From: an uncultured Holophagae bacterium | Lineage (GTDB): Bacteria > Acidobacteriota > Thermoanaerobaculia > Thermoanaerobaculales > Sulfomarinibacteraceae | DNA: 64,000 nt | Reading direction: 5' to 3' | Assembly: GCA_963797055.1 (NCBI GenBank) | Contig: CAWCOD010000005.1 | Coordinates: forward strand, 189,995 to 253,994 | Part shown: piece by piece, positions 3,515 to 59,200 of the stretch | How positions within the stretch are numbered: position 1 is the stretch's first letter | Layout: the number at the start of each line of letters is the position of its first letter | Notes under the pieces: generated by a model | What the model was told of the DNA's origin: nothing | The model's database searches: none | Seen by the model: the letters and a program-made list of their open reading frames with translations, nothing else | Translations under genes and position numbers: made by a program

Positions 3515-5188
3515 TCAATCCGGACGGGCGAGAGTTTCGAGACGGCCACCCCGCCAGAGGTAGGCGGGCATGCCGGGATACGCCGTCCACAGCGCCGAGT
3601 TGTCCCCGAGATCACGGGCGAAGATCAGGTCGTGGCGGCGGGGTCCGGTCATCATGCGGGACGCCATGGCCCAGTCTTGCCAGTCGTCATCGCCGAACAG
3701 GATCAGACCCCGTGCGACACCGGCATCGGCCACGGCCCGCTCGAGGGATGCGTCGACGCCGTTGTATCCGGTGTAGAGGCGGAGGCGTTCGGGCAGAGTT
3801 ACGGCGGTGGAGCCGGCAAGTACGGCGAACAAGAGGGCGGCGGCGATCCAGGTGATTGCGGTTCCGCCAGGCTCGGCCGGACATTTTTCGCTCCGGTCTC
3901 CTCCCGGGGCGATGCGGGCGAGCTCCTGGAAGCCCCGGGCGGTGAGCAAAAAGAGCGCGGCGAAGGCGTCAAAGTAATAGCGGGGGCCGAATCCGTGGAG
4001 ACCGTGGGCCTGGGTGCCCACATGGACCGCCATCAGGCAGAGGAACCAACCGGCCAACAGGATGTCCGATTTGGTGTATCGACGCAGCAGGAAGGGCACC
4101 ATCGTCAGGGCCAACGGCAGGGCGAGGATCAGCCAACCGCCGGAAAGACCCCAACCCCACCCATGGAGCGCCGGGAGGGTGGAGGCAAAAATGGCGTCCA
4201 GATTCTGGATTCCGAAGGGCACATTGGCCAGGGAGTACATGGATCCCCGGGCAAATGTGTAGGGCAGTGAGAGTGGGCTACCGGTGATGATGAGGTTCCC
4301 GATCAACAGCGGCACGGTGCCGGCGACGCCCCCGGTGATCACGGCGGCCAACCTCGCCCGAGATGATTGCCCGCGGTGGGAATTTCGGCAGTCCATCAGC
4401 AGCTGGATGCCGCACGGGACGGCCGCCGCGAGGGCGGACAGTGGCCGAATTCCGAAGGCCAAACCGAGGAGGATGCCGCCGGCCAGCGCGAGGCCGATGC
4501 CTTGTCGCCGCCTCGAGCGCTGGAGCAGGACAAGAAAGCCGAGAACGAGGGTTGCGCTGCCGGCATGGGACAGGTGGGAGCCGAAAATCACCCGCGCCAT
4601 GGGCGACAGGACACCTAGGCACGCCGCCGCACAACCCACCCGTTGGTCGTAGAGCGTGTTCCCGAGCCACCAGAGCAGCATGACGTAGAGGCCGCCGAGC
4701 AACGGAGCCACCGTCCAGGCCGCACCCGCCGCGAGCCCCGTGGCCAGCATCGCCGGCCAGCCGAAGGGATAGTGGGCGATCCAATGGCCGTCGACCACAT
4801 AGGTGAAGGGGACGTCGAGGTGTTGTTGGATGGCGGAAACCGGTGGCACGAGTCTACCGTCGAGCAGCCACCGCGCCTGGAGAAGATAGACCACGGAGTC
4901 GGGCAGGTGGGGGAGGCGCTCCAGGATTTCCTCGGCAAACCAGAGCGAACAGAAAGTGGCGGTGGCCGCCAGACCGGCGGGGATGATTGTGGCGCGGAGG
5001 CCAGTGGTCAGTGGCGGATCCGGGTGACTGGGGCGGGTGTGTCCTCCCGACCCCGGACAGTCCGAGAAAGAGCGCGATGAGCAGGGCCGCCACTGCCGCC
5101 GATTTGAGCGCGAGTGCGATTGCCGCGGCAAGGTCCCGTGCCGGTTGGGGATCGAGGCTGGTGACCGCGATCGGCACCCATCCTTCAT
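3515..5188 (-). CDS. Polytopic membrane protein, GT-C fold glycosyltransferase-like (ArnT/PMT-like); 5' end uncertain
   Basis: Many hydrophobic helices. The first-loop segment LPDSVVYLLQARWLLDG resembles the acidic loop of ArnT/PMT enzymes. The first ~50 codons of the ORF are R/S/P-rich and look out of frame. Confidence 0.55.
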   Translation of the reverse strand: MKDGCRSRSPASIPNRHGTLPRQSHSRSNRRQWRPCSSRSFSDCPGSGGHTRPSHPDPPLTTGLRATIIPAGLAATATFCSLWFAEEILERLPHLPDSVVYLLQARWLLDGRLVPPVSAIQQHLDVPFTYVVDGHWIAHYPFGWPAMLATGLAAGAAWTVAPLLGGLYVMLLWWLGNTLYDQRVGCAAACLGVLSPMARVIFGSHLSHAGSATLVLGFLVLLQRSRRRQGIGLALAGGILLGLAFGIRPLSALAAAVPCGIQLLMDCRNSHRGQSSRARLAAVITGGVAGTVPLLIGNLIITGSPLSLPYTFARGSMYSLANVPFGIQNLDAIFASTLPALHGWGWGLSGGWLILALPLALTMVPFLLRRYTKSDILLAGWFLCLMAVHVGTQAHGLHGFGPRYYFDAFAALFLLTARGFQELARIAPGGDRSEKCPAEPGGTAITWIAAALLFAVLAGSTAVTLPERLRLYTGYNGVDASLERAVADAGVARGLILFGDDDWQDWAMASRMMTGPRRHDLIFARDLGDNSALWTAYPGMPAYLWRGGRLETLARPD

Positions 5189-5723
5189 CCCAGATGAAGA
5201 TGTCGTTGTTGATCAGACCGCGCCGGAAGCTGACGGAAATCGTGGGCTTCCCCAGAAGTCTCACGATGAGGTGTTGGTGGATGCGGCCGGTGAACACCGT
5301 GGATATTTCAAAGGGTCCGGAGAGGGCAACGGGGTGGTCGAACACGGATCCATGTGCCGATTGATTATCGATCTCCCAGTCGGCAACCGGCGCCGCCGAC
5401 CCGGGAGGCAGGCGAAAGGGTGACGGTAGATCGACGATCTCCGGAGGAGACGCGCCCCGGCGGATCTCCAGCGACCGGCCGCCGGTTGGGAAAACCGACG
5501 CCCAGGTCCAGATCTCGATGCGATCCACCGACTCGATGGCCACGGGTGCGGTCAGCACCGAGTCCGCAACGATGACGCGAAGGGTGTTTCCCGAGCTGAA
5601 GATCTCCAGGCTGGTGCTGCGGTCCATGGCCCGTGCGGCCGTCCAAAGCGCCGCAGCCGCGACGATCCACAGGAGGATGCGCCCGATTCTGGCATCGCGG
5701 TGGCTGGCCCCTGCTCGGCTCAT
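4854..5723 (-). CDS. Membrane-anchored protein of unknown function; its 3' part overlaps the GT-C ORF in another frame (possibly one gene split by a frame break)
   Basis: ATG 5723 gives MSRAGASHRDARIGRILLWIVAAAALW (N-terminal TM), then a ~190-aa soluble domain and a second TM LAAAIALALKSAAVAALLIALFLGL. Beyond about 5040 this frame decays to P/R/G-rich text while the GT-C frame becomes protein-like. Confidence 0.5.
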   Translation of the reverse strand: MSRAGASHRDARIGRILLWIVAAAALWTAARAMDRSTSLEIFSSGNTLRVIVADSVLTAPVAIESVDRIEIWTWASVFPTGGRSLEIRRGASPPEIVDLPSPFRLPPGSAAPVADWEIDNQSAHGSVFDHPVALSGPFEISTVFTGRIHQHLIVRLLGKPTISVSFRRGLINNDIFIWDEGWVPIAVTSLDPQPARDLAAAIALALKSAAVAALLIALFLGLSGVGRTHPPQSPGSATDHWPPRHNHPRRSGGHRHFLFALVCRGNPGAPPPPARLRGLSSPGAVAARR

Positions 5724-5827
5724 GGGTTCATGATACGCGGTAGACCTTTTGGCGATCTCGCAGTTGGGGAATGGGATAGGATGATCGGCACGATCGACTC
5801 CAGAGGGAGTCAAAGAGGACCAGGGGA

Positions 5828-8173
5828 ATGAGTATGGTGTCGAGGGCGACTTTCGCGCTGGTGGTTGGTGTCTTGTGGGCGGGTTTTGTCATGGCCCAGA
5901 CGCAGCCGCCGCCGTTTGGCGACCGGCGTGGCGGCGAGGAGGACCGGATCCGACAACGGATCGAGTGGTTCGTCCAAACAAGAGGACTCGATCGGGTGTC
6001 GAGGGCGGATCGATTGCGCAGCGAGGCTGTGCTTGCGGTCAAGGCGGTTCGAGACGCGGACTCCGGCCGACGGTCGCCACCATGGACACCGCTGGGCCCG
6101 AACTCGATGACCATGTTGGATTGGCGGATTGAGGACGTTTCGGGCCGGGTTTCAGCCTTGGCGGTCCATCCCGAAGATGAGGACATCATCTATCTTGGTT
6201 CGGCCTCCGGCGGGCTCTGGAAGACCATCGACGGTGGCGGCTCATGGTCGCCGATCTTTGACGACGTAGGAACGCTGACCATCGGCAGCGTGGTGATCGA
6301 TCCGTCCTCTCCGGACACGTTGTGGGTGGGCACCGGTGAGCAGGGGCAGAGCTGCTGGTCGTACTTCGGGATGGGGCTTTTCCGCTCCACCGACGGGGGC
6401 GAGTCGTTCGAACCGGTCAATGGATCGGATTCTCAAACCCTGGACCTGTCTTTCATTACCGGCATCGTCGTCCATCCCGATCGTCCCGGGAACATCGTCG
6501 TGGGGGGTGAGACCTGGTGCGATGACGGTGCCTTTCTCTACGGTGGGCTCTATCGGTCCACCGACGGGGGGACCTCGTGGCAGCGGGAGATTTCGGGCGC
6601 CGTCACCGACGTGATCATGGACCCCAGCAGGCCCGACACGCTCTACAGTGCGGTAGGTCGGTGGTCGAATAACGTCAACGGCGTCTACCGCAGTACCGAT
6701 GCGGGCGCGACGTGGACCAGACTCGAGGGCGGTCTGCCGTTCGGCGCTCAAGTGGGTCGGACCCGGCTCGCCATGGCGCCTAATGACAGCGCGACGATCT
6801 ACGCCTTGATGAACCACGAATCAGGGGTGGAGTTGTACCGTTCCACCGACGGTGGCGACACGTGGGTTCTCACCAACCCCGACGCCTGCGACGGTCAATG
6901 CTGGTACAACCTGTGCCTTGCGGTGCACCCGCTCGATGCCACGCGACTTCTGCTGGGCGCGGTCCGCTTCTACGCTTCCCTCAACGCCGGGACCACGCTT
7001 GCTCCGCTGATCGACTTCTGGGGCCCCGGTCAGACGGTCCACCAGGACATTCACGTGCTGGTCTATTCACGGTTGGATCCAAACCGGTTTTGGGTTGCGG
7101 GCGACGGCGGTATCTGGCGATCCGACGACGGTGGTGTCAATTTCGAAAACCTCAACGCAAACTTGAACCTCACCCAGTATTACGACATCGCGGTCCATCC
7201 TTCAGATGCTTCGACTGTCTTTGGTGGTTCGCAGGACAACTCCTCGTCGGCCACCATGGGCGATATCAAATGGGACGTCACAGTGGTCACCGGAGATGGG
7301 TTCATCAACGTGGTGGACTCCGAAGATCCGCAGATCGTTCTTCAAACCTCGTACCCGTACGAGGGGTACCCTTCGCTCTTCCAGTCCATTTCAGGGGGGA
7401 TCCCCAACAGCTTTCAGTGGTTGTGGCTCACCGGTGTCACGCAGTACGAACCGTGGCCGTGGGTGACGCCCCTTGCGTCGTTGGCTTCGGGGAGCGGCAA
7501 CAACCATCTGTTGCTCGGATCGGACCACGTCTATCGGTCATCCACCGCCCACCCCAGCCAATGGACAAAGGTCTCGGGTGATCTCACCGGAACCAACGGA
7601 AGCCTGAGCGTGCTGCTGCCGGTGGCCAACCAGGACACGGTCATGGTCTACGCAGGGACCGGAAACGGCAAGATCCACAGAACCGACGACGTCCTGGCGG
7701 CCGCCCCCGAATGGGTCGATGTGACGGGCAACTACCCCGGAGACACGGTCACCGACATCGCCGTGGATCCCCAAGATCCGCTCGTCGTGCTGGTCACCCG
7801 CGGCCAATTCGACGCCAGTCGTCTCTACCGGTCCTCAACCGGCGGCACCGCGTGGCAGGCGGTTGGCGCCGGGTTGCCAAACGTGCCTGCCAACACCGTG
7901 GTGGTGGATCCGACGGACGGACGCCGGGTATTTGTTGGGACCGACGTGGGTGTGTTTGTCAGCACGGACCGAGGATTGAGCTTTGAGCCGATTGTGGATG
8001 GCCTGCCCTTGGGTTTGGTTGTGACAGACTTGGAGGTGGACGGCGATCCCCACGTTTTGACGGCGGGAACCTATGGTCGCGGCGCGTGGCAGCTCGAGCT
8101 CCGACCAATCGATCTCTTGGACGACGGCTTCGAGTCGGGGGATCTCTCCGCCTGGACGACCAGCTATCCGTGA
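5828..8173 (+). CDS. Secreted BNR/Asp-box repeat beta-propeller protein (sortilin/Vps10/GH74-like)
   Basis: Signal peptide MSMVSRATFALVVGVLWAGFVMAQ. Eight Asp-box-like motifs: IDGGGSW, STDGGESF, STDGGTSW, STDAGATW, STDGGDTW, SDDGGVNF, SSTGGTAW, STDRGLSF. Confidence 0.85.
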   Translation: MSMVSRATFALVVGVLWAGFVMAQTQPPPFGDRRGGEEDRIRQRIEWFVQTRGLDRVSRADRLRSEAVLAVKAVRDADSGRRSPPWTPLGPNSMTMLDWRIEDVSGRVSALAVHPEDEDIIYLGSASGGLWKTIDGGGSWSPIFDDVGTLTIGSVVIDPSSPDTLWVGTGEQGQSCWSYFGMGLFRSTDGGESFEPVNGSDSQTLDLSFITGIVVHPDRPGNIVVGGETWCDDGAFLYGGLYRSTDGGTSWQREISGAVTDVIMDPSRPDTLYSAVGRWSNNVNGVYRSTDAGATWTRLEGGLPFGAQVGRTRLAMAPNDSATIYALMNHESGVELYRSTDGGDTWVLTNPDACDGQCWYNLCLAVHPLDATRLLLGAVRFYASLNAGTTLAPLIDFWGPGQTVHQDIHVLVYSRLDPNRFWVAGDGGIWRSDDGGVNFENLNANLNLTQYYDIAVHPSDASTVFGGSQDNSSSATMGDIKWDVTVVTGDGFINVVDSEDPQIVLQTSYPYEGYPSLFQSISGGIPNSFQWLWLTGVTQYEPWPWVTPLASLASGSGNNHLLLGSDHVYRSSTAHPSQWTKVSGDLTGTNGSLSVLLPVANQDTVMVYAGTGNGKIHRTDDVLAAAPEWVDVTGNYPGDTVTDIAVDPQDPLVVLVTRGQFDASRLYRSSTGGTAWQAVGAGLPNVPANTVVVDPTDGRRVFVGTDVGVFVSTDRGLSFEPIVDGLPLGLVVTDLEVDGDPHVLTAGTYGRGAWQLELRPIDLLDDGFESGDLSAWTTSYP

Positions 8174-8275
8174 ATTTTTAATTCTCAATTTTGAATTTTG
8201 GATTTCCACCCTCCCCCCGTTTGATCCGGGCGGGTGGGGGCATAATTTAAAATTGAGATTTCAGAATTAAAAATT
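8173..8275. repeat. Foldback element between convergent genes: heptamer arm + C-box ... G-box + heptamer arm
   Basis: AATTTTTAATTCT (8173-8185) is the exact inverted repeat of AGAATTAAAAATT (8263-8275). The inner arms are imperfect. Core boxes are CCACCCTCCCCCC (8208-8218) and GGGCGGGTGGGGG (8228-8240). It may act as a bidirectional terminator. Confidence 0.75.
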
Positions 8276-8294
8276 TGTCGTCAAGGACGACCGG

Positions 8295-10130
8295 TTAGTT
8301 CCCCTGCTCGGAATCATCGACGAAATCGACCCGCTCGATCTGGTGGAGCATGTAGAGGAGGCGCAGAATCTGCTCCTCGTCCTTCTCCCGTTTGATCAGG
8401 TCGGCCGGTGTGGGCTGCTCGAGCTGGATTGCCCGCAGCAGTCGTTGCTGACGACCCGAAAGTTGGAGATCGGATGGGAGGTCGTTGCCGGTGGCGATCA
8501 GGCGGTGACGGAGCTGGGCCTCCAACTCCCGCCGGATGACCACCAGCGGCACCCTGTCCTGGACGCCCTCGTGGATGAGGGTGAAGGTCCTCAGATTCAG
8601 GGGCATTCCGGGCTCCGGCGGGAGCACGCCGCGATAGTAGGCGTAGGTGCCTCCGGTCCACGAGAAGACCTCCAGGATCCGGTCGCGGATCTGATCGGCC
8701 AGGTACCGGTACATTGAGTTTGGCGACAGGGCCTTCATGGCCAGGGTGGCCTCCATGAAGCGCAGCCCGTGTTTGGCCGCCCGATCGAGAACGGCGCCGT
8801 GTTGCTCTCTGGTGAGGGCGCCCCTCGCCACGAGGTACTCACCAAAGAACTCTCGTTCCACATTCGAAACCGCAAAGGTCGGCTCGCCGTCCTCGAAAAA
8901 AATCGTCTTGCGCACCGGATCGCGAATGAGATCGAGCTGGCCCGTCTCCCGGGCTTCTCGCAGGCGCTTGAAGAGCCGGGCCACCGGCAGGTGGAGCAAA
9001 TCGCCGTCCATGTCGGGTCTGGGTGCGACGTCCCGGGCCCCCTGGGGGCCCACCGGGACCTTGGGGACCCCGGGAAGATTGAGGGCCAAAGGGTTCCCTC
9101 GGTCCGGCGGCGTGACCTGTTGTTCGGTGGAATCCGGTGAGGTCGCCGAGCTCGCCTGGTGCATGACCTCGTCTCGCGACATCTGCTCCGCCTGCAGCTC
9201 GCTCTCTCGTTCGGCTTCGATCTCGTTGGCGTAAAGATGTTCCATGAACATCCTGAGTTCCACGTCGGACATGGGTCGGCTGGCGTCGTCGACGCTCCGG
9301 AGAAGGTCCTCACGAAAGGCATTGGCGTCCGGATAGCGGTGGGCCGGGTCCGCAGCCAGAACCCGTTCCAGAACCCGCTGGATCGGCTCGGGTAGGTTTG
9401 CGATCCGGCTCCGGTCGAATCCGCCCTGCCGGATGTCGAGCAGCATGGCCATGTCGTTGGGAGCCTCTCGAAAAGGGGCCATGGTCAGCATCTCGGCGAG
9501 GACCACGCCGAGGGAGTAGGTGTCGCTGCGGCCGTCCACCCGGGCGCCGGCCGCTCCCTCCGGGCTGATGTACCGCACCTTGCCCTTAATCACGCCGAGC
9601 TCGGTGTGTTCTTCGCGGTTCTTGGCGCGTGCGATGCCGAAGTCCGTGAGCTTGACCTCGCCCGAGTAGGAAATCAGGATGTTGCGAGGGCTCACGTCTC
9701 GATGAACAATCTCCTGCGGCTGGCCGTCAAGCGAGCGGAATTCATGGGCGTAGTGCAACCCGGCGCAGGTCTCGGCGATGACCCGAGTGGCGAGGCGCCA
9801 CGGGCAACGCTGTTGTTGGGAGACCAGCCGTTGGACAACGCGGAAGAGGTCGCGGCCCGCCACGTACTCCATGGCGATGTAGGGCATCCCGTCTTCCTCG
9901 CCGAGATCGTAGATCTGGACCACGTTGGGGTGCATCAACCTGGACGCGATCTTGGCTTCGTCGGTGAACATGCGCAGGAATCGTTTGCGCTCGAGCAGAT
10001 GGGGGTGGATCCGTTTGATCGCAATGGTTTTTGTAAAACCCCGGATGCCCACCAGCTTGGCACGATACACATCGGCCATGCCGCCGGTGGAGATCTTGTC
10101 CAGAAGAAGGTATTTCCCGAATCTTTTCAT
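8295..10130 (-). CDS. Ser/Thr protein kinase (Hanks type) with C-terminal DUF4388-like domain
   Basis: GGMADVYRA...AIKRI (ATP-binding Lys), HRDVSPRNIL catalytic loop, DFGIA. The C-terminal ~250 aa (LPVARLFKRLREARETGQLDL..IFFEDGEP) resembles DUF4388. Confidence 0.85.
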   Translation of the reverse strand: MKRFGKYLLLDKISTGGMADVYRAKLVGIRGFTKTIAIKRIHPHLLERKRFLRMFTDEAKIASRLMHPNVVQIYDLGEEDGMPYIAMEYVAGRDLFRVVQRLVSQQQRCPWRLATRVIAETCAGLHYAHEFRSLDGQPQEIVHRDVSPRNILISYSGEVKLTDFGIARAKNREEHTELGVIKGKVRYISPEGAAGARVDGRSDTYSLGVVLAEMLTMAPFREAPNDMAMLLDIRQGGFDRSRIANLPEPIQRVLERVLAADPAHRYPDANAFREDLLRSVDDASRPMSDVELRMFMEHLYANEIEAERESELQAEQMSRDEVMHQASSATSPDSTEQQVTPPDRGNPLALNLPGVPKVPVGPQGARDVAPRPDMDGDLLHLPVARLFKRLREARETGQLDLIRDPVRKTIFFEDGEPTFAVSNVEREFFGEYLVARGALTREQHGAVLDRAAKHGLRFMEATLAMKALSPNSMYRYLADQIRDRILEVFSWTGGTYAYYRGVLPPEPGMPLNLRTFTLIHEGVQDRVPLVVIRRELEAQLRHRLIATGNDLPSDLQLSGRQQRLLRAIQLEQPTPADLIKREKDEEQILRLLYMLHQIERVDFVDDSEQGN

Positions 10131-11137: not shown

Positions 11138-11204
11138 GGTCTTGAAACCGCAAACCCCCACACGGCCCTCGTGACGAAGTCCTTCGCTCCTCGTGCCGTC
11201 GACC

Positions 11205-11372
11205 ACCAGCGAGGTGAGAAGGTGAGAAGGTGAGAAGGAGAGGTGGGCGGGGGCTCCGACTTCGCGTTTCGCTACGCTGTGACACGTCTCCCATCTTGAA
11301 TCTTGCATCTTGCATCTTGCATCTTGGATCTTGGATCTCTGGATCTTAGATCGGGTGGGTGGGCGCCCGTTT
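11205..11372. repeat. Tandem arrays (ggtgagaa)x3 at 11212-11238 and (atcttgN)x8 at 11293-11350, each followed by a G-box
   Basis: Direct reading. G-boxes are ggtgggcggggg (11242-11253) and gggtgggtgggcg (11353-11365). The same unit types occur in opposite orientation at 562-890. Confidence 0.85.
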
Positions 11373-12152: not shown

Positions 12153-13418
12153 GTGAATCGTCGTGATGCCCCCGGTTTCCGCTGGTTTCGCCTGACGTGG
12201 ATTGGGCCGGGGTTGGCGGTGGCGGCAACGGGCGTGGGCGCCGGCGACCTCCTGGCAGCCATGCTCGCAGGAGCCGGTTTTTCCGCCACTCTGCTGTGGG
12301 TGATCATCGTCGGCGCAGCCCTGAAATTCACCCTCAACGAGGGCGTGGCGCGCTGGCAGGCAGCCACGGGTACGACCCTATTGGAGGGATGGTGTCTGCA
12401 TTTGGGGTCATGGTTTACCGGCGGTTTTTTGGCCTACCTCGTGCTTTGGTCCTTTATCGTCGCCGGAGGCTTGATGAGCGCGTGCGGCGTCGCGGCTCAC
12501 GCCCTGGCGCCGATGGTGGGCATCAAGACCTGGGCCGTCTCGCAGTCCCTGCTCGCGGCCACCCTCGTGCTGGTGGGAGGATACGGCCTTTTCGAGCGGG
12601 TCATGAAGCTGCTGATCGGGATCATGGTACTGACCCTGCTGTTCAGCGTTGTGATGGTGGCGCCGGATCTGATGTCGATGTTACGTGGTCTGGTGCCGAC
12701 TCTGCCACCGGGCTCCGCCGCCGCGACCTTGAGCCTTATGGGAGGTGTGGGCGGCAGCGTGACCTTGTTGTCCTACGGATATTGGATCCGCGAGAAAGGC
12801 TGGGCAGGGGTTGGGGCCATGGAGAGGATTCGCGTGGATCTCGGTTTGGGCTATGCGCTGACCGGGGTGTTCGGCATCGCCATGCTGCTGCTCGCGGCAA
12901 CCGCCTTGGCCGGGGCGGGAGGCATGCCCGCCGGCAGCCAGGGCTTGGTGGTGTGCGCCGACGCGATCCGGGACTCGACGGGACAGAGGTTGGGGCCGGC
13001 TGCCGGTCAGGCCGTTCGACTCATCTTCCTGGTGGGCGTTTGGGGGGCTGTGTTCACCAGCACCCTGGGCGTATGGCAGGGAGTGCCGTACCTGTTCGCG
13101 GATTTTCTCGGCATCCTCCGCGGCCGCGGGACCGAGCCGGTGGATACCTCTGGCTGGACCTATCGCGGCTACCTGCTCTTTCTGGCGGTTCCACCCCTTG
13201 TGTTGGTGTTTTTCGGTCGACCGATCTGGGTCATTACGGTCTATACCTTGACCAGCGGCTTGTTCATGCCCGTGCTTGCGGCCGCCCTGCTGTGGCTGAA
13301 CTCGCGGAAACGCCTGGTGGGAGATCTTCGCAACGGCCGCCTCGTCACCGCGGCCTTGCTGCTGGCGTTGGTTCTGTTTGGAGCCATCGCCGTGAGGACC
13401 GCGATTGATCTGTTCTGA
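12153..13418 (+). CDS. NRAMP-family (MntH-like) membrane transporter, divergent TM1 motif
   Basis: IGPGLAVAATGVGAGDLLAAMLAGAGFSATLLWVIIV aligns with the NRAMP TM1 region, but the canonical DPGN reads GAGD(L). I chose GTG 12153 because the ORF-track start 12033 overlaps the upstream gene (stop 12133). Confidence 0.7.
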   Translation: MNRRDAPGFRWFRLTWIGPGLAVAATGVGAGDLLAAMLAGAGFSATLLWVIIVGAALKFTLNEGVARWQAATGTTLLEGWCLHLGSWFTGGFLAYLVLWSFIVAGGLMSACGVAAHALAPMVGIKTWAVSQSLLAATLVLVGGYGLFERVMKLLIGIMVLTLLFSVVMVAPDLMSMLRGLVPTLPPGSAAATLSLMGGVGGSVTLLSYGYWIREKGWAGVGAMERIRVDLGLGYALTGVFGIAMLLLAATALAGAGGMPAGSQGLVVCADAIRDSTGQRLGPAAGQAVRLIFLVGVWGAVFTSTLGVWQGVPYLFADFLGILRGRGTEPVDTSGWTYRGYLLFLAVPPLVLVFFGRPIWVITVYTLTSGLFMPVLAAALLWLNSRKRLVGDLRNGRLVTAALLLALVLFGAIAVRTAIDLF

Positions 13419-13455
13419 TATCCCTTCGCCCGCCGAACCAGCGACTGTCCGCCCG

Positions 13456-13645
13456 GTCGAAAGCCCAAAGTCGAAAGTTGAAAGTCCCCACCCTCCCGTT
13501 GCGAGGGGGCGCGAAAAGCGGGCGTGCCGTCTTCGGGCGCATTGCGAACGCGCTCACCCGGTGCCAGGCACCGTCGAAATCAAATCGTAGTACGAGGTCG
13601 ACACATCTGCAGCGGTGCCTGGCACCGACACGAATTTCGAATTGG
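13456..13645 (+). repeat. Intergenic composite: gtcgaaag units, GC 5' box, GGTGCCAGGCACC hairpin cassette (copy B1), heptamers
   Basis: GAACGCGCTCACCCGGTGCCAGGCACCGTCGAA (13546-13577) pairs with GCGGTGCCTGGCACCGACA (13612-13630). It is preceded by GGGGGCGCGAAAAGCGGGCGTGCC. Confidence 0.8.
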
Positions 13646-16015: not shown

Positions 16016-17958
16016 CTACATCCCGAGCCGCTTCCGAGTCAGCGCCTCGAGCCCACCGGCCAGCACCAGATCCTGGGCGGCGGGGCCGAGGGGTGACAGT
16101 CGAAACTCCTCGCCACGCCAGGTGGCCACCGAGCTGCGAAAATCCACCGACAGATCGCCGGCAGGGATGGTCTTCGACCCGTCCTCCGCTTCCTTCTGAA
16201 ACGCCGTTCGGATCGCCTGTGACAGGGCCGGGCTCTCGAGGCAGATAAAGGCGTTGTTGAAGGCGTTCCGCAAGTAGGTTTGGGAAAAGCTGGCGGCGAT
16301 GACCATGCGAATGCCCCGGTACTTCAGCGCGGTGGCGGCCTGCTCGCGGGAGGAGCCGGTGCCGAAGTTGCGACCGGCGATGATGATGTCCCCGTCGTCG
16401 GCGATCTCTTGAAAGTCGGGATCGTAGTTGGCCATGGCGAACCCCGCCATCTGCTCCGGCGTGAGATCGTCCCGGTACGTCACATCCTTGCCGTAGACGC
16501 CGTCGGTGTTCAGGTTGTCCACGGGCAGCAACAGGGCGCGACCGTGCAGTTGTTCTGGAAATCCCTCGCGGATGTCGACAGATCGGGCGGGGGACGTCCA
16601 TCCGAGATCGGTGAAACTGTAATCGGGGACAGAGTCTCCGAGGTCAACCGGTCCGGTGATGCGTCCGGCGATGGCCGAGGCGGCCACAACCGCCGGGCTC
16701 GCCAGATAGGCCTTGGCGTCTCGGGAACCCATGCGGCCCTTGAAATTGCGGTTGGTAGCCGAAATGCCCACCTCGCCAGCTTCGAGAAGACCCACACCGA
16801 GTCCGATGCAGGCACCGCAGCCCGGCGGCAACGTCTTCGCCCCGGCATCCACGAGTGTCTGCCAAACACCCTTGGCCTCCGCCTCCCGCTGGACCTCCGC
16901 CGACGCGGCGGCGACATAGAGCTCGACGCCGTCGGCGACGCGGTGGCCGCGCAACACCTCTGCCGCCTCGAAGAGGTCGTCGAAGCGGGAGTTCACGCAG
17001 GACAACAAATAGGCCTTGTTCACCGCCACAGGCTCGGCGTCGAAGACGGCCACGGGGCGGGCTACCGCCACCGAGTCGGGACCCGCCACATGGGGCGAGA
17101 CCCGGCCGAGGTCGAGGTGGATCTCGGCGGCGTACTCGGCTCCGTCATCGGGCGTCGGTGGGTGCTCGTCCCAACCCGCGATGTGGTCGCGGGAGAGTCG
17201 CTCCGGGAAGCCCTTCGACGCCAGCCTCGCCTCCCGTTCGCGGAGGTACATGCAGTGACGTCGTCGTAGGGGAACCATCCCACAAGCGCACCCCATTCGG
17301 TGGTCATGTTGGCGACGGTCATTCGCTCAGAGATCGACAGCGTGCCGATCCCCGGGCCGTGGAACTCCACCGCGGCGTTGAGCACCTCTCCGGAGGAGTA
17401 GAGACTGCACAGGGTGATGATCACGTCCTTGCCCACCACACCGCCCCGTAGCCGCCCCTCGAGAACCACCTTCACCGACCGCGGGACCTGCCACCAGGTG
17501 GTGCCGGTGGCCCAGATCGCGGCGGCGTCGGTGCGCACGACCGGCGTGCCCACGGCCGCCAGCGCGCCGTACATGTTGGAATGGGAGTCCGAGGCCACCA
17601 CCAAGCTACCTGGGTGAACGAAGCCATTCTCCACCATCAGTTGGTGCCCGATTCCGGCTCCCGCCGGGTGAAAGACGATGCCCTGATCGCGGGCAAAGGC
17701 CTCGATGGCACCGTACTTGGCGAGGTTGGCGTCGGTGGTGTCCTGGACGTTGTGGTCCAGGGCGAAGATGGGCTGGGCGGGATCCGCCACCCGGACGGCG
17801 CCGATGGCCCTGAACTTGGGCAGGATGGCACCGGTGTTGTCGTGGGTCATCACATGGAATGGACGGATGGTGACCATGTCGCCGGCGCGGACCTCCTGCC
17901 CGGGTGTCAGATCGACCGCGTGGGACTGAGCGATTTTTTCGGTGATGGTCTGCGGCAT
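16016..17958 (-). CDS. Aconitase-family dehydratase, fused large+small subunit (homoaconitase / 3-isopropylmalate dehydratase-like); frame break near 17250
   Basis: ORF 17062..17958 (ASDSHSNMYGALAAVG, MTTEWGALVGWFPYDDVT) continues as ..YLREREARLA.. in ORF 16016..17296 (CGACIGLG, ATNRNFKGRMG, swivel-domain GRNFGTGSSREQAA). The span of 1943 nt is not a multiple of 3. Confidence 0.8.
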
Positions 17959-17974
17959 TTACAATTCCCTCCGG

Positions 17975-18138
17975 GAGATTCCAGATTCCAAATATCCACC
18001 CACCCGCCCGGCCCAAATTTCAGATTTCAGTTTATTCCGGAATACAGGGTGGGAGGGGGAATCTGCAATCTGCAATTTGCAACCAAGAACCTGCAATTGT
18101 CAGCACCCAATTCAAAATCCAGAATTCAACATTCAAAA
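17975..18138. repeat. Heptamer arrays flanking an inverted C-box/G-box pair
   Basis: attccagattccaa; CCACCCACCCGCCCGGCCC (17996-18014); atttcagatttcag; palindrome attccggaat; GGGTGGGAGGGGG (18047-18059); aatctgcaatctgcaatttgcaa (18060-18082); aattcaaaatccagaattcaacattcaaaa. Confidence 0.8.
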
Positions 18139-19677: not shown

Positions 19678-19704
19678 GGGCGGGTGGGTGGGTGGGTATA
19701 TCAT
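19678..19704 (+). promoter_or_regulatory. G-quadruplex-type motif (GGG-N1)x4-GGG abutting TATATCAT, 18 nt upstream of cinA
   Basis: gggcgggtgggtgggtgggTATATCAT read directly. A promoter role is inferred only from position. Confidence 0.35.
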
Positions 19705-23152: not shown

Positions 23153-23430
23153 CATTGCGAATTGCGAATTGCGAATTTCAGATTACAGATTGCAGATTGC
23201 AGATTCCGCCCGCCCACCCGGAGGGAGGAGGGTGCGTCTGGCGGGCGTGCGACTTTTGACATTGTTCGGATTCTCATCGCCGAAGGTACTGAGACAGGGG
23301 TCCGAACAATGTCAAGGGTGGCAACCTCGGGGAGCGCGTTAGGGAGAGGGCCACGCTGAAATCTACATGTCGAATCGAACGCGCTCACCCTGTGCCTGGC
23401 ACCCACATGGAATTTCGAATTCAAAATTCG
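23153..23430 (+). repeat. Composite intergenic element, copy A1: heptamer arrays + C-box + TTGACAxTGT hairpin element + half GGTGCC cassette + heptamers
   Basis: Heptamers 23153-23205; core 23206-23362 with stem ttgacattgttcgga (23256-23270) / tccgaacaatgtcaa (23301-23315); gaacgcgctcaccctgtgcctggcacc 23376-23403; ggaatttcgaattcaaaattcg. Confidence 0.85.
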
Positions 23431-25328: not shown

Positions 25329-25638
25329 GCAGATTGCAGATTGCAGATTGCAGATTGCAGATTCCCCCGCCCACCCGGAGGGAGGAAGGCGCGATGGGCG
25401 GGCGTGCCGTCTTTGACAATGTTGGAGGTTGAGAGTTACACGGTCGTAGAACGTCCCGACATTGTCAAAGGGGGCAACCTCGGGGAGCGCGTGGGGAGAG
25501 GGGCGCGACGAAATCGGCTGATCGTGCCAAAGATCTTCTGAAGAGCGGCCGCACCGCGGTCCCCGACCCGGGCAGGGTGGGGGACATTCAAATCTGCAAA
25601 TCTGAAAATTCAATAGCCGGGTGGGCTGGAGGGTAGGT
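25329..25638 (+). repeat. Composite intergenic element, copy A2, with inverted heptamer + C/G-box termini
   Basis: (gcagatt)x5 at 25329-25364; core 25366-25516 with stem tttgacaatgttgg (25412-25425) / ccgacattgtcaaa (25456-25469). The right end GGGTGGGGG + attcaaatctgcaaatctgaaaattc (25577-25614) mirrors the left end. Confidence 0.85.
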
Positions 25639-26645: not shown

Positions 26646-26915
26646 CTACTGCATATTGCGCAGTGACTTACCAGGCTTGAAGCGGATGGTTTTGCCGGGA
26701 GGAATCTCGACTTCGTGGCCGGTCTTTGGGTTGCGGCCGATGCCACGCTTGCGGTCCTTTACAAGAAAAACGCCGAATCCCCGAAGCTCGATGCGGTCAC
26801 CCCTGAGAAGGGCCTCTTTCATGCCCTCGAAGAGAGCGTTGACCGCCTCGGTGGCCTTTGGTTTTGGGAGGTCGGCGGCCTCCATGACCCTTTCGACGAG
26901 ATCCGATTTGATCAT
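26646..26915 (-). CDS. Integration host factor / HU family DNA-binding protein (IHF-like)
   Basis: MIKSDLVERV...RIELRGFGVFLVKDRKRGIGRNPKTGHEVEIPPGKTIRFKPGK is the IHF/HU fold signature with a beta-arm. Confidence 0.85.
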   Translation of the reverse strand: MIKSDLVERVMEAADLPKPKATEAVNALFEGMKEALLRGDRIELRGFGVFLVKDRKRGIGRNPKTGHEVEIPPGKTIRFKPGKSLRNMQ

Positions 26916-27024
26916 CCCCTAACTCCTTCCCACGACAGGATCAGAAAACATAGCCTCAAGTCCTACCTGTGTCAAGGGATTGCCGACGCAGCCGCCGGAC
27001 CCCACCGTCCCAGGCCAGGATGAA

Positions 27025-27515: not shown

Positions 27516-27592
27516 ATTTCGAAAGTCGAATTCGAAGTACCCTACCCATCCGGAAGGCACCTCGCCCTTTTGCCCCAGATCGAGCGGGGACA

Positions 27593-27630
27593 ATCCGCAA
27601 TTCGCAATTCGCAATTCGCAATCCGTAATT
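27593..27630. repeat. Heptamer array (caattcg)x4
   Basis: ccgcaattcgcaattcgcaattcgcaatccgtaattc read directly. Confidence 0.85.
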
Positions 27631-27713
27631 CATAGTTGGCGGGAGCCGTATTGCCTCACGATCGCCATACGGCAGCCCTATCCGCCCGAAGTGCTGGTGG
27701 TACTCTTCGAGGG

Positions 27714-29746: not shown

Positions 29747-30123
29747 AGGTTGAAAGTTGAAAGTTGGGTTCATCCGGGAAAGCGTGAGGTGGGGGTGTCT
29801 GCCCGTCCGTCCCCGCTTGCCACGGCGTAAGCCGTTGCGAATCCGGGTGTCCGGGCCCGAGAGGCAGCGTTCAGCGACAGCGGCTGGGTGCAGCGAGCAG
29901 GGACAGTCATCAGGGGCAGCGATCAGTTGCTTCCGCGGCATGGAATGGGTCACCTCCGGGTCGTTCCATGGGATGAATAGCCGGTGGCCAGCCGATGTCA
30001 AGGGCAAGCCGGGCCAGAGGCCCGCTGGCGCTGGTTGCTGACGCTGCCATCTGTCCCGGATCGCTGTCGCTGCCGCTGGCATCGGTATGCGGGCCCCCGC
30101 GTTCGCTTCGATTGACTCATTTC

Positions 30124-30311
30124 GAGGCGCCCATCTCCCCGAGGCGCTCTCCGAGGTTGCCGCCTTTGACAATGTTGGGACTTCTGAGGCCGAGTGAATC
30201 AGCTGAATGGACCCAACATTGTCAAAGACGGCACGCCCGCCATACCCGCCCACCGCGCTCCGGGTGGGCGGAGAAATCTGCAATCTGCAATTCGCAATTT
30301 GCAATTCGTAA
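30124..30311 (-). repeat. Composite intergenic element, copy A6 (reverse orientation) with heptamer array
   Basis: Stem tttgacaatgttggg (30166-30180) / cccaacattgtcaaa (30212-30226); GGGTGGGCGG 30262-30271; aaatctgcaatctgcaattcgcaatttgcaattcg 30273-30307. Confidence 0.85.
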
Positions 30312-42906: not shown

Positions 42907-42929
42907 CACGAGCCCCTGACGCGATACCG

Positions 42930-42962
42930 ACGGCCGGCGCACTTCGCCGGCCGTTTTTCTTG
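42930..42962 (+). terminator. Rho-independent terminator after the ferredoxin gene
   Basis: Stem acggccggcg (42930-42939) / cgccggccgt (42945-42954), loop cactt, then tttttctt. Confidence 0.65.
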
Positions 42963-43054
42963 AACAAAGAACGAAAAACGAAGATCAAAGACCCACCCAC
43001 ACCGGGTGGCTGGGTATCCCGCCCCGCTCATCTTGGATCTTGCATTTTGTATCT

Positions 43055-43083
43055 GGGTGGGTGGGCGGGGGCTCTGCTATCAT
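43055..43083 (+). promoter_or_regulatory. G-quadruplex-type motif followed by TATCAT, upstream of trpS
   Basis: gggtgggtgggcggggg (43055-43071), ctctgc, tatcat (43078-43083). ATG at 43107. Confidence 0.3.
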
Positions 43084-45610: not shown

Positions 45611-45687
45611 CCCCCACCCGTTCATTACGAATTACGAATTGCGAATTTTTACGAATTGCGGACTTTGGGTTGCAGATTGCAGATTGT
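45611..45687. repeat. C-box plus heptamer arrays (attacga / gcgaatt / gcagatt)
   Basis: cccccaccc; cattacgaattacgaattgcgaatttttacgaattgcg...ttgcagattgcagattg. Confidence 0.85.
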
Positions 45688-45739
45688 CGCCACCGAGGAC
45701 TTTGATATCGAAAGTTGAAACGGGGTGCTTGGGCGGGGC

Positions 45740-45768
45740 AAAAAAATTGGCTCCGGGGCAGGAGCCAA
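45740..45768 (-). terminator. Candidate rho-independent terminator (minus strand)
   Basis: The minus strand reads TTGGCTCC-tgcccc-GGAGCCAA followed by TTTTTTT. The A-runs on both sides could make it bidirectional. Confidence 0.4.
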
Positions 45769-45873
45769 AAAAGGAGGAGTGTGATGAAGGTCGTTGTTGA
45801 TGGTCCGGCGTTGACGCCGGTACTCGTGCCTTCAAGGGTGTATACGGTTGCAGGGGCGGATTGGTTACAGAAC

Positions 45874-46185
45874 AGGGTATGGAAGGTATGGCAAGTGTGG
45901 AGGGTGTGGAAATTGTCAAAGATGAACGTTGAACGTTACACGTTAAACGTTTGCCCCCCCCCAAAAAAAACACCTCAACCGAAGCAAGGGGGCGGGATGG
46001 GCGGGCGTGCCGTCCTCACGCGCTCCGAGAACGCGCTCACCCGGTGCCAGGCACCGTCGAACTCGCATCGGAGTACGAGATCTATACATCTGCGGCGGTG
46101 CCTGGCACCGACATGGAGATCGGAATACGAGGGTGGCTCCCTCGGGGAGCGCGGTTGGGAGATAGGCGCGTCGAAATCAGCGAAT
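45874..46185 (+). repeat. Composite: ggtatgga/gtgtgga units, ACGTT array, C9A8 tract, and GGTGCCAGGCACC cassette (copy B2) between the same 5' and 3' boxes as the A elements
   Basis: acgttgaacgttacacgttaaacgtt at 45926-45951. 5' box ggcgggatgggcgggcgtgcc; arms ccggtgccaggcaccgtcgaa (46041-46061) / gcggtgcctggcaccgaca (46096-46114); 3' box ggtggctccctcggggagcgcggttgggagataggcgcg. Confidence 0.8.
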
Positions 46186-46256
46186 CGAAGCGCGGCCACG
46201 GGCTGCATGGGCTGGGATCCTTGAGGTTGATCCTCCAGTGTTTCCTGACACCAGTT

Positions 46257-50420: not shown

Positions 50421-50592
50421 GTGGTTGAATTCGGAATTTGAAGACCCCGCCCACCCGGAGCGTGAGGGCGCGATAGGCGGGTGTGCCACTTTTGACATTG
50501 TTCGGGTCCTCATCGCTGAAAAATCTGAGACTGGGGTCCGAACAATGTCAAGGGTGGCAACCTCGGGAAGCGCGTGGGGAAAATCGGCGCGA
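50421..50592 (+). repeat. Composite intergenic element, copy A3
   Basis: gttgaattcggaatttgaaga; core 50446-50592 with stem ttgacattgttcggg (50492-50506) / ccgaacaatgtcaa (50538-50551). Confidence 0.85.
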
Positions 50593-50654
50593 CGGCGCTG
50601 TGCAGTGGATTCAGTCGCGAACCTGAAAGTACTTGGAGGACCTGCGGAAAGCAT

Positions 50655-56440: not shown

Positions 56441-56615
56441 GAGAAAATTCGAAAATCGAAATTTGAAATTCGAATGCCCGTTTTGGCCAAGGTTGTTTCA
56501 GCGCGCCCTTCTCCTCACCGCGCTACCCGAGGTTGCCCCTTGACAATGTCGGGACTCCAAGAGCCGGGCGACTCAGCCGTAGAGCCCCAACATTGTCAAA
56601 GAGGGCACGCCCGAT
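56441..56615 (-). repeat. Heptamer array plus composite element copy A7 (reverse orientation, lacks the C-box end)
   Basis: gagaaaattcgaaaatcgaaatttgaaattcgaat at 56441-56475. Stem ttgacaatgtcggg (56540-56553) / ccccaacattgtcaaa (56585-56600). Confidence 0.8.
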
Positions 56616-56671
56616 CATCGCGGCCAAACGCTCTGGATCGTTGGGGGCAATAACCCGATGGCCCCTAGGCC

Positions 56672-57914: not shown

Positions 57915-58258
57915 CCCCGCCCACCCATTACGAATTACGAATTACGAATTGCAGATTGCAGATTGCAGGTTGCAGATTCCCGCCCACCGGAGCGAGGTTG
58001 CGGGCGTGCAGAATTCGCGAGGATGTGCGAGATGCAGAGTCCTCCGCCCACCCGGAGAGAGGAGGGCGCGTCTGGCGGGCGTGCCACTTTTGACATTGTT
58101 CGGAGGTTTCGATGCAGCCGAAGGTACCCGAGGACAGGGAGTCCGAACAATGTCGAAGGGTGTGGCAACCTCGGGTCGGCGCGTTAGGGAGAGTGGCCAG
58201 CGCTGAAATCTACGATGTCGGATCGAACGCGCTCACCCGGTGCCAGGCACCGACATGG
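57915..58258 (+). repeat. Composite intergenic element, copy A4: C-box, heptamers, solo 5' box, full core, half GGTGCC cassette
   Basis: ccccgcccaccc; (attacga)/(gcagatt) arrays 57927-57979; solo box cccgcccaccggagcgaggttgcgggcgtgc 57979-58009; core 58043-58210 with stem ttgacattgttcgga / tccgaacaatgtcgaa; gaacgcgctcacccggtgccaggcaccgaca 58225-58254. Confidence 0.85.
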
Positions 58259-58300
58259 TGGGCCTTCCGGGCGGGTGGGGGATCTCGGATCTTCACCCGA

Positions 58301-58788: not shown

Positions 58789-59200
58789 GAATTGAAAATG
58801 TGAAATGAGAAATGAGAAATGAAGGAAGTGAAAATTCGAACACCCCCACCCGCCCGGAGCGTGAGGGCGCGATAGGCGGGCGTGCCACTTCTGACACTTT
58901 CGGGAGGATGGGCGGCGATGCCGTCGGTGCCGTCCGGTCCCGAATAGTGTCAGGGGTGGCAACCACGGGGAGCGCGGTCGGGAGAGGGGCGCGCGGAATC
59001 GACAGATCGAATCGAACGACAGGACCCCCGTGGATCGGCCGTCCCGGCTGCAATCTCCGAGTTGTTGGATCCCACGATTGCAGGCGGGACGCCTGCTCCA
59101 CAATGCAGGCCCCAGGCTGCGCTACAACGCCGTGCCGGGCGGGTGGGCGGAACGTTTAACGTTCAACGTTCAACGTTTACACCCTCCACACCTTCCACAC
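58789..59200 (+). repeat. Composite intergenic region: gaaatga units, element copy A5, G-box, ACGTT array, ccacac units
   Basis: gaaaatgtgaaatgagaaatgagaaatgaagg; core 58843-59000 with stem ctgacactttcggga (58891-58905) / tcccgaatagtgtcag (58938-58953); gggcgggtgggcgg 59137-59150; aacgtttaacgttcaacgttcaacgttt 59151-59178. Confidence 0.8.

Follow-up and report, generated by a model that had tools for sequence, protein, structure and literature searches.

A heptamer-armed foldback between two convergent genes of an uncultured Acidobacteriota bacterium, probably a copy of a dispersed, lineage-specific palindromic repeat

The DNA considered here is a stretch of 64,000 nucleotides (nt) from an uncultured Holophagae bacterium of the phylum Acidobacteriota (assembly GCA_963797055.1, contig CAWCOD010000005.1, positions 189,995 to 253,994), which we call the window and to which all unlabelled coordinates refer. 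A gene for a BNR/sortilin-like protein (5828-8173, forward strand) converges on a gene for a Ser/Thr kinase with Pkinase and DUF4388 domains (8295-10130, reverse strand, stop codon at 8295-8297). Between them lies a foldback of 103 bp (8173-8275) that is, we argue, probably one copy of a dispersed repeat family. A reading of the letters alone (the sequence-only reading) had it exactly filling the gap between the two genes. This is only nearly right, because the foldback takes up 102 of the 121 intergenic bases: it shares 1 nt with the TGA of the BNR gene (8171-8173) and ends 19 nt before the kinase stop codon. These 19 nt form a small hairpin of their own, GTCGTCcttGACGAC (8277-8291, reverse strand), just past the kinase stop codon and outside the repeat itself.

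The foldback is conspicuous because it is an AT-rich island in a genome with a GC content of about 62-63%. Along 8173-8275 it reads AATTTTTAATTCTCAATTTTGAATTTTGGATTT-CCACCCTCCCCCCG-TTTGAT-CCGGGCGGGTGGGGG-CATAATTTAAAATTGAGATTTCAGAATTAAAAATT. The left arm (8173-8205) is made of about 4.6 heptamers (AATTTTT AATTCTC AATTTTG AATTTTG GATTT) and is T-rich on the forward strand (T/A count 18/9); Tandem Repeats Finder reports a period-7 array of 5.0 copies at 8171-8205. The C-box CCACCCTCCCCCCG (8206-8219) supplies the 5' half of an inner GC hairpin, TTTGAT (8220-8225) its apical loop, and the G-box CCGGGCGGGTGGGGG (8226-8240) its 3' half. The right arm (8241-8275) consists of five heptamers phased on ..AATT and is A-rich on the forward strand. 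The perfect terminal inverted repeats of 13 bp named in the sequence-only reading, AATTTTTAATTCT at 8173-8185 in the left arm and AGAATTAAAAATT at 8263-8275 in the right, are indeed exact reverse complements, and its C-box (CCACCCTCCCCCC) and G-box (GGGCGGGTGGGGG) likewise lie between them, at 8206-8218 and 8228-8240. Overall, the arms are 81% complementary over 32 nt and the inner C/G stem 90% complementary over 10 nt.

The folding energy of the full palindrome, suggested earlier as a check, indicates strong stability: -43.9 kcal/mol for forward-strand RNA (z -5.1, with none of 200 shuffles equally stable), -35.0 kcal/mol for reverse-strand RNA (z -3.0) and -23.3 kcal/mol for DNA (z -4.5). 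No known RNA family matches any part of the window at the Rfam gathering score, and at E<=10 the foldback finds only chance matches to plant microRNA-precursor hairpins (16-24 bits, against 83-90 required). The window has no genes for transfer RNA or transfer-messenger RNA. We also considered whether the boxes could form a G-quadruplex or i-motif and reject this reading, as there are only three G or C tracts and the boxes pair with one another. Canonical four-tract G-quadruplex motifs do occur elsewhere in the window (19678-19696, 43055-43071 and 45988-46005, for example GGGTGGGTGGGCGGGGG); they are intergenic and adjoin arrays.

The foldback is not alone. Scanning metagenome loci (labelled here L001 and so on) for hairpins composed of C-box, short loop and G-box uncovered further short foldbacks with various arms. 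One of these, at L063 2459-2560, carries the arm motifs of the window foldback around an almost identical centre (CCACCCTCCCCC...CCGGGCGGGAGGGGGC) and occupies all 102 nt between fumC and a rimI-like gene convergent with it. An nhmmer profile built from four copies matches the window foldback at 8162-8283 (E 2.5e-37) and recovers full-length copies in L169 (two), L084 (two), L124, L102, L156 (two), L120 and L145, with E values from 1e-19 to 7e-7. This amounts to at least 13 full-length relatives, located at unrelated intergenic positions in metagenome contigs and related genomes. All family members fall between 92 and 119 bp and have (AATT+3 nt)n arms inverted around a GC-rich centre, and in most of them the ends follow the pattern AATTCTC...GAGAATT. 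Both the narrow range of lengths and these shared ends point to a common origin. A derived variant, AGTT/AACT, is common to both L156 copies. Folding is unusually stable (z of -4.5 or below, down to -11.9) in 11 of 13 copies, the remaining two being L169 423 (z -1.8) and L084 5833 (z -2.6).

Aligning 14 copies reveals that AATT is conserved every 7 nt along each arm, with variable triplets in between, and that 7 of 20 consensus pairs exhibit double changes that preserve pairing. Note that G-U pairs (about 17) are roughly as frequent in this alignment as A-C mismatches (about 15), so that neither strand is favoured; for the same reason, the folding energies of the foldback are uninformative as a guide to RNA strand preference. 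Every copy is built from a pair of heptamer arrays in inverted orientation, each of four to five units and keyed to the palindromic AATT, with a short GC-rich hairpin between them, which in the window foldback is the C-box/G-box pair. The family appears to be undescribed, and its hosts are uncultured Acidobacteriota.

The same ingredients recur throughout the window: it contains 35 period-7 arrays, diverse in unit sequence, along with a few octamer arrays. Examples lie at 485-1081, 2328-2491, 11212-11352, 23154-23205, 27591-27631, 45624-45951, 57927-57978 and 59151-59177. Most units consist of AATT plus three bases or hold short palindromes (TTCGAA, AACGTT, TGCA, GATC), and the arrays are found in convergent, tandem and divergent spacers alike. 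They often adjoin C-rich boxes (CCCCCNCCCNCCC) or the G-rich complements: 22-24% of array ends have such a box within about 20 nt, compared to a background of about 3.4%, and the C-box motif class of the foldback is found next to heptamer arrays across the whole window. A strict rule of array followed by C-box had to be rejected, as a box may precede or follow an array and may point either way. Array density is 5.0-5.5 per 10 kb in the window and in L001-L003 and at most 1.9 per 10 kb (mostly 0-1) in 49 other loci, other Acidobacteriota included, making the window about tenfold denser than control loci. Since period-7 arrays are dense only in the window and L001-L003, the repeat system is clade-specific.

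Arrays and boxes also bound a larger composite element of about 200-310 bp, present in the window as seven full and two partial copies, several of which are framed by array and C-box on one side and by G-box and array on the other. In these relatives, the position of the foldback's apical loop is filled by an interior of up to about 280 nt that includes a structured core of about 110 nt. The G-box of the foldback matches the right end of the composite element at 58267-58281 letter for letter, and its complementary strand contains CCCCCACCCGCCCGG, the left end of the composite copy at 58843. The layout of heptamers, C-box, G-box and heptamers recurs, as had been proposed, at 17975-18090 and at the outer ends of 25329-25638. 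The former is a second short foldback, with arms (AGATTCC)n and (AATCTGC)n and a 33-nt interior between C-box and G-box, situated between two tandem reverse-strand genes. The latter holds a composite relative (25329-25615) in which (GCAGATT)5 and a C-box precede the structured core and a G-box and an (AATCTGC)-type array follow it. A decayed paralogous copy of the foldback itself survives at 2328-2358, after a PAD-like gene, where only the gene-proximal (AATTTYG)n arm is left; the orthologous site of L001 (17647-17761) carries a complete foldback.

Comparison with L001 further reveals short modules in one genome facing core-containing or composite modules in the other at two orthologous sites. 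At 13399-13631 the window has composite modules and L001 only an array, CCCGCCCACCCGG, 14 nt, a G-rich box and another array; at 11141-11363 the window has an octamer array and L001 a full core of about 110 nt. These differences, together with C- and G-boxes that are the very motifs bounding composites of about 310 bp, support the earlier idea of a minimal form: the foldback is the short, cargo-less version of a modular repeat system whose array and C-box ends also frame the core. Paired palindromes, GGTGCCAGGCACC / GGTGCCTGGCACC, constitute another recurrent composite module (13550-13640, 46040-46110 and 58240-58260) that is present in metagenome copies too.

What is the history of the foldback at its present site? 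Orthologues of the kinase are found in metagenome-assembled genomes (MAGs) labelled 'uncultured Holophagae', with 94% (L001), 85% (L003) and 83% (L002) amino acid identity; more distant homologues are labelled Thermoanaerobaculales or Candidatus Sulfomarinibacter by their sources. The L001 foldback differs from that of the window by 4 substitutions (96% identity). This might be taken as a sign of selection, a reading we reject: the foldback lies inside a 900-bp recombination tract, so that its identity to L001 is not evidence of constraint. The tract (7500-8399) spans the 3' end of the BNR gene, the foldback and the 3' end of the kinase gene, and looks like the product of recent recombination. 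In L178-L180, the kinase is 96% identical as protein and about 88% as DNA. Here, too, a homologous foldback follows the kinase gene, at about 70% identity, which corresponds to a roughly neutral rate, and it retains the fold (-33.1 kcal/mol, z -4.7). Compensatory double substitutions at two positions, from T-A to G-C and from C-G to T-A, account for its perfect terminal stem. A homologous foldback is thus found 3' of the same kinase in three species-level lineages.

L178-L180 lack the BNR gene cassette (about 5745-8168 of the window), and their next gene points in the direction of the kinase. One junction of this indel, which measures about 2.4 kb, is 5 nt away from the foldback end, at AAAATTCACGG|. 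We considered an attC-like or integron-cassette reading of the indel and rejected it, as the cassette has a foldback on one side only. In lineages whose kinase is 79-86% identical, the kinase spacer holds different arrays, hairpins of C-box and loop with T-runs, or else the structured core. Turnover is evident at other orthologous spacers as well: a repeat block of about 350 bp in the window is absent from L001, and array copy numbers differ between the two, with 8.4 versus 3.4 copies of (ATCTTGN) and 3.3 versus 4.4 of (TTTCGAA). The palindrome is maintained, then, while its sequence drifts, and array lengths and modules turn over between species.

Taken together, we think it reasonably probable that the foldback is a copy of a lineage-specific, dispersed, non-coding repeat family of about 100-120 bp, similar to miniature inverted-repeat transposable elements (MITEs) or to the doublets of repetitive extragenic palindromic (REP) sequences known as REPINs, and that it represents selfish or structural intergenic DNA. 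Such an element would act non-autonomously. It might spread, or have its symmetry kept up, through a single-stranded hairpin intermediate that leaves no target-site duplication, with slippage altering the copy number of the arms, and copies would accumulate where insertion is least harmful, mainly at convergent gene ends. Transcription of either flanking gene would yield an AU-rich RNA stem of about 40 bp with a GC tip; its role is more plausibly that of a barrier at the 3' end, or of a site for RNase III-type processing, than that of a canonical intrinsic terminator.

The sequence-only reading had considered a MITE-like foldback, and this largely holds up in view of the 13 or more homologous foldbacks at unrelated intergenic sites and the derived variant of the L156 pair. 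Several observations nonetheless weigh against a dispersed repeat of this kind. None of the 13 copies has a target-site duplication, a common target or a conserved flank. Pfam finds no transposase or integrase domain in the roughly 52 open reading frames (ORFs) of the window, where neither an autonomous element nor a mobilising enzyme was found, and no neighbouring gene recurs near the related repeats. With neither target-site duplications nor an autonomous parent, what we have is a resemblance to MITEs, not demonstrated membership. In addition, the dispersed copies are only about 65-80% alike, the profile score derives largely from the AATT-phased arms, which could arise repeatedly in situ, and the 64-kb window holds just one intact copy. 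That copy has been resident across three species-level lineages, so that recent mobility here is not shown, and its close match in L001 sits in a segment (7500-8399) that is 95-100% identical between the two genomes, coding flanks included, against a background of about 85%. Finally, the excess of convergent sites rests on 12 sites and would also fit a selected function at 3' ends.

The last point leads to the alternative that survives best, if still an unlikely one: that the foldback is a selected bidirectional terminator or 3'-end stabiliser and the family a hairpin toolkit recruited to gene ends. Among 12 independent family sites, 6 are convergent, 3 tandem and 3 divergent, when convergent spacers make up only 19% of spacers and 22% of spacer length in the same loci (binomial p of about 0.015-0.03 for 6/12 versus 19%, by our own estimate), and the copies at L063 2459-2560, L120 8132-8243 and L156 2245-2355 fill the stop-to-stop gap almost exactly. 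The hairpin is strong on both strands and preserved by compensatory changes. Every orthologue of the kinase spacer has some hairpin; in L002 and L003 this is CTCAAAAAGC, a C-rich loop and GCTTTTTGAG followed by TTTTT, with CCCGCGGG plus T6 as a further one in L003. Classical terminators, consisting of a hairpin and a T-run, are not enriched in the window (11 versus 12.8 expected, 19 versus 12.4 and 15 versus 13.0), so other signals may be needed. Two of the few classical ones lie at 45740-45775 and 42929-42965; one is AAAAAAA-TTGGCTCCGGGGCAGGAGCCAA-AAAAAA, bidirectional by shape, the other GGCCGGCG...CGCCGGCC plus TTTTT.

A GC-rich hairpin with AT-rich flanks between convergent genes does resemble an intrinsic terminator, except that here the flanks are inverted, U-rich on the 5' side and A-rich on the 3' side. 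This reversed polarity, with the T-rich arm 5' of the GC hairpin and the A-rich arm 3' of it in both reading directions, is seen in 13 of 13 copies. No U-tract follows either the inner hairpin (next sequence CAUAAUUUAAAA on the forward and AAAUCCAAAAUU on the reverse strand) or the full hairpin (UGUCGUC and CACGGAU, respectively). The bidirectional terminator that was initially proposed as a possibility is therefore unlikely in the canonical sense. A terminator scan does not call the foldback; it calls the small GTCGTCcttGACGAC hairpin, and the number of terminator-like sites around the foldback (2 versus 2.2 expected) is at chance level. On the kinase transcript, GTCGTCcttGACGAC is followed by the U-rich arm of the foldback (AAAUUUUUAA), and it is possible that the two make up a weak composite terminator. 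Considering also that 3 of the 12 sites are divergent, promoter-side spacers, that the homologous copy of L178-L180 stands in a tandem rather than convergent context, and that primary sequence drifts at about the neutral rate, we rank a dedicated terminator below a dispersed repeat. The convergent excess leaves room for a non-canonical role at 3' ends.

A bolder scenario starts from the core of the composite elements, which consists of CGGGCGTGCC, a long covarying hairpin and GGCAACCTCGGGGAGCGC. Core copies lie at 23209-23380, 25364-25533, 30119-30271 (reverse strand), 50445-50616, 56496-56622 (reverse strand), 58041-58210 and 58843-59018, with partial copies at 13486-13533 and 45991-46187, and the core pattern GTCARRGGNGGCWMCCWCGGRNAGCGC has matches in at least 120 metagenome stretches. 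We derived a consensus from an alignment of 106 distinct copies, in which two short helices, GGGCG/GCGC and GCC/GGC, are invariant and an 11-nt internal loop, AACCUCGGGGA, is conserved. The long hairpin covaries, individual pairs being represented, for example, by CG in 53 and UA in 45 copies, by AU in 66 and GC in 36, or by AU in 52, UA in 30 and CG in 14. As U-G pairs (about 161) far outnumber C-A (about 5), this is probably the structure of one particular strand, either RNA or single-stranded DNA. Two composite copies find no Rfam match for the core at E<=10, and the core has neither an orientation bias towards its neighbours nor a recurrent neighbouring gene. We also looked for a sigma-70 or sigma-54 promoter in the core and discarded the idea: inspection reveals no conserved -10 box or correct spacing, and promoter scans are at chance. 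Imagine that the foldbacks of heptamer arrays and C-box were the empty docks of a mobile, modular system as yet undescribed, with the core (CGGGCGUGCC-long hairpin-GGCAACCUCGGGGAGCGC) as its cargo. The core would then enter or leave at the hairpin tip via a single-stranded intermediate, and the element at 8173 would be a footprint or landing pad of a novel type of mobile element, one that needs no transposase gene nearby. We regard this scenario as speculative and give it rather little credence.

Less probable again is an array of sites to which a protein binds on DNA or RNA, for instance a nucleoid-associated protein or an AT-hook/minor-groove binder, with AATT every 7 bp and the inverted pair as a bipartite site. 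The fixed phase of AATT is the most conserved feature of the 14 copies, the 3 nt in between being free, the AT-rich islands stand out against a 62-63% GC genome, the window encodes an HU protein (26646-26918), and similar arrays in Geobacter metallireducens have been proposed as IHF/HU-type sites (PMC2700814). However, a period of 7 bp is unlike the helical repeat of DNA, no association with promoters or any gene class is apparent, no candidate protein was found, and the arms co-vary to keep pairing, for which a duplex-binding site would have no need. Just as improbable is a purely local origin without mobility, in which slippage during replication makes the heptamers in place, template switching at the GC hairpin makes the palindrome, and look-alikes are convergent: differing array copy numbers at orthologous sites of the window and L001, the many heptamer units of the clade, the lack of visible target-site duplications and the inverted heptamer pairs of a Nostoc plasmid, including the unit GCAGATT, would all fit, but the window and L063 copies, although their loci are not orthologous, agree almost fully in centre and arm motifs, the narrow range of lengths and the shared termini (AATTCTC...GAGAATT) point to a common origin, and the two L156 copies have a derived variant in common.

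Some observations concern the genes around the repeats. The PAD-like (2270-2319) and BNR (8120-8173) proteins are unrelated and have a common C-terminal motif, DGFESGDLS(A/G)W; in both genes, the same (AATTTTG)n arm comes after this end. A radical-SAM ORF (2403-2500) extends into an (AACGTTN)n array, its C-terminus being unlike that of L001, and here the repeats seem to rewrite a gene end. Two genes look frameshifted, for aconitase (16019-17958, split at 17065-17326) and for a 735-amino-acid protein (3518-5723, break near 5068-5142), and these may be long-read assembly errors or pseudogenes. In an exact-protein look-up, the kinase was not on record and the HU protein was found only on contigs under 1.5 kb.

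Small palindromic repeats such as REPs, MITEs and the short tandemly repeated repetitive (STRR) sequences shape bacterial intergenic DNA and have been characterised in few cultured groups. To these the present system adds a well-delimited family in uncultured Acidobacteriota whose arms are phased heptamer arrays, a link between dispersed, hairpin-forming elements and the tandem heptamers of Geobacter and cyanobacteria, which have long gone unexplained. It also offers an evolutionary series, where one site holds short repeat-only, composite or different modules across related genomes. Elements are found at rearrangement breakpoints, as in the case of the 2.4-kb gene cassette whose indel ends 5 nt from the foldback, and because they abut or overlap stop codons they matter for the annotation and assembly of MAGs. 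The core of about 110 nt is a candidate new structured RNA or single-stranded DNA motif and merits separate study.

How does the foldback compare with known systems? STRRs are heptamers repeated in tandem between genes, and small conserved motifs lie inside or beside them; Elhai and colleagues reportedly described these cyanobacterial heptamers, along with small dispersed repeats, in Genome Research in 2008 (volume 18, from page 1484). The tandem 7-nt units of the window are likewise intergenic, lineage-specific and accompanied by adjoining motifs. As STRRs are defined in cyanobacteria, this is analogy, not membership: the present arrays belong to another phylum and a GC-rich genome, form foldbacks of 100-120 bp around C/G boxes, and frame a core of about 110 nt. 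A search of a plasmid database with the composite element matched only a heptamer array of Nostoc sp. TCL26-01 (plasmid NZ_CP040301, L054, 26089-26200), in which (GATTGCA)n faces an inverted CAATCTGCAATCT array; the heptamer unit and foldback layout of this spacer are those of the GCAGATT arrays in the window. Another parallel is offered by the paired inverted tandem hepta- and octanucleotide repeats of Geobacter metallireducens, annotated in that single genome as 'putative global regulator binding sites' (classes 1-3) and proposed by the authors to be sites for global regulators of the IHF/HU type (PMC2700814). There, too, 3-5 tandem units of 7-9 nt are paired on opposite strands at variable distance, in dozens of genome-specific copies, and the units of the L001 copy, ATTCTGA, agree with the class 3 consensus MTYCTGA. 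Geobacter differs in that a C/G-box centre is not described and in that ISGme8/9 insert at a fixed distance, an insertion sequence association not seen here (PMC2700814).

REPINs and the bacterial interspersed mosaic elements (BIMEs) built from REPs are known from proteobacteria (Bertels & Rainey 2011, PMC3116915). Like a REPIN, the foldback is an inverted doublet of about 100 bp that makes a long hairpin, here from two inverted modules of array and box; it is extragenic and dispersed without target-site duplication, and mosaics with other short motifs occur as they do in BIMEs. Whether such DNA is selfish or has been co-opted for a function, in termination or mRNA stability, is asked of both. 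In contrast to REPINs, the halves are a heptamer array and a C-rich box rather than an imperfect palindrome of 20-40 bp, the GTAG or CGTC head that characterises REPs is absent from the foldback copies, Pfam finds no gene for a REP-associated tyrosine transposase (RAYT; Y1/HUH) in the 64-kb window, and the host belongs to the Acidobacteriota, not the proteobacteria. Bacterial MITEs such as Correia/NEMIS and the enterobacterial repetitive intergenic consensus (ERIC) are non-coding, intergenic sequences of about 100-150 bp with terminal inverted repeats that form hairpins when transcribed. The foldback resembles them in size, terminal inverted repeats, non-coding intergenic scatter and hairpin; it differs in lacking a target-site duplication and a related insertion sequence with the same ends, and its arms are internally repetitive with a 7-nt period whose unit sequence varies among copies. 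Since the target-site duplication that defines MITEs and the GTAG or CGTC head that defines REPs are absent, and neither an autonomous parent nor a RAYT gene was found in the window, we file the foldback as a variant of the small palindromic repeat kind and as a member of neither family.

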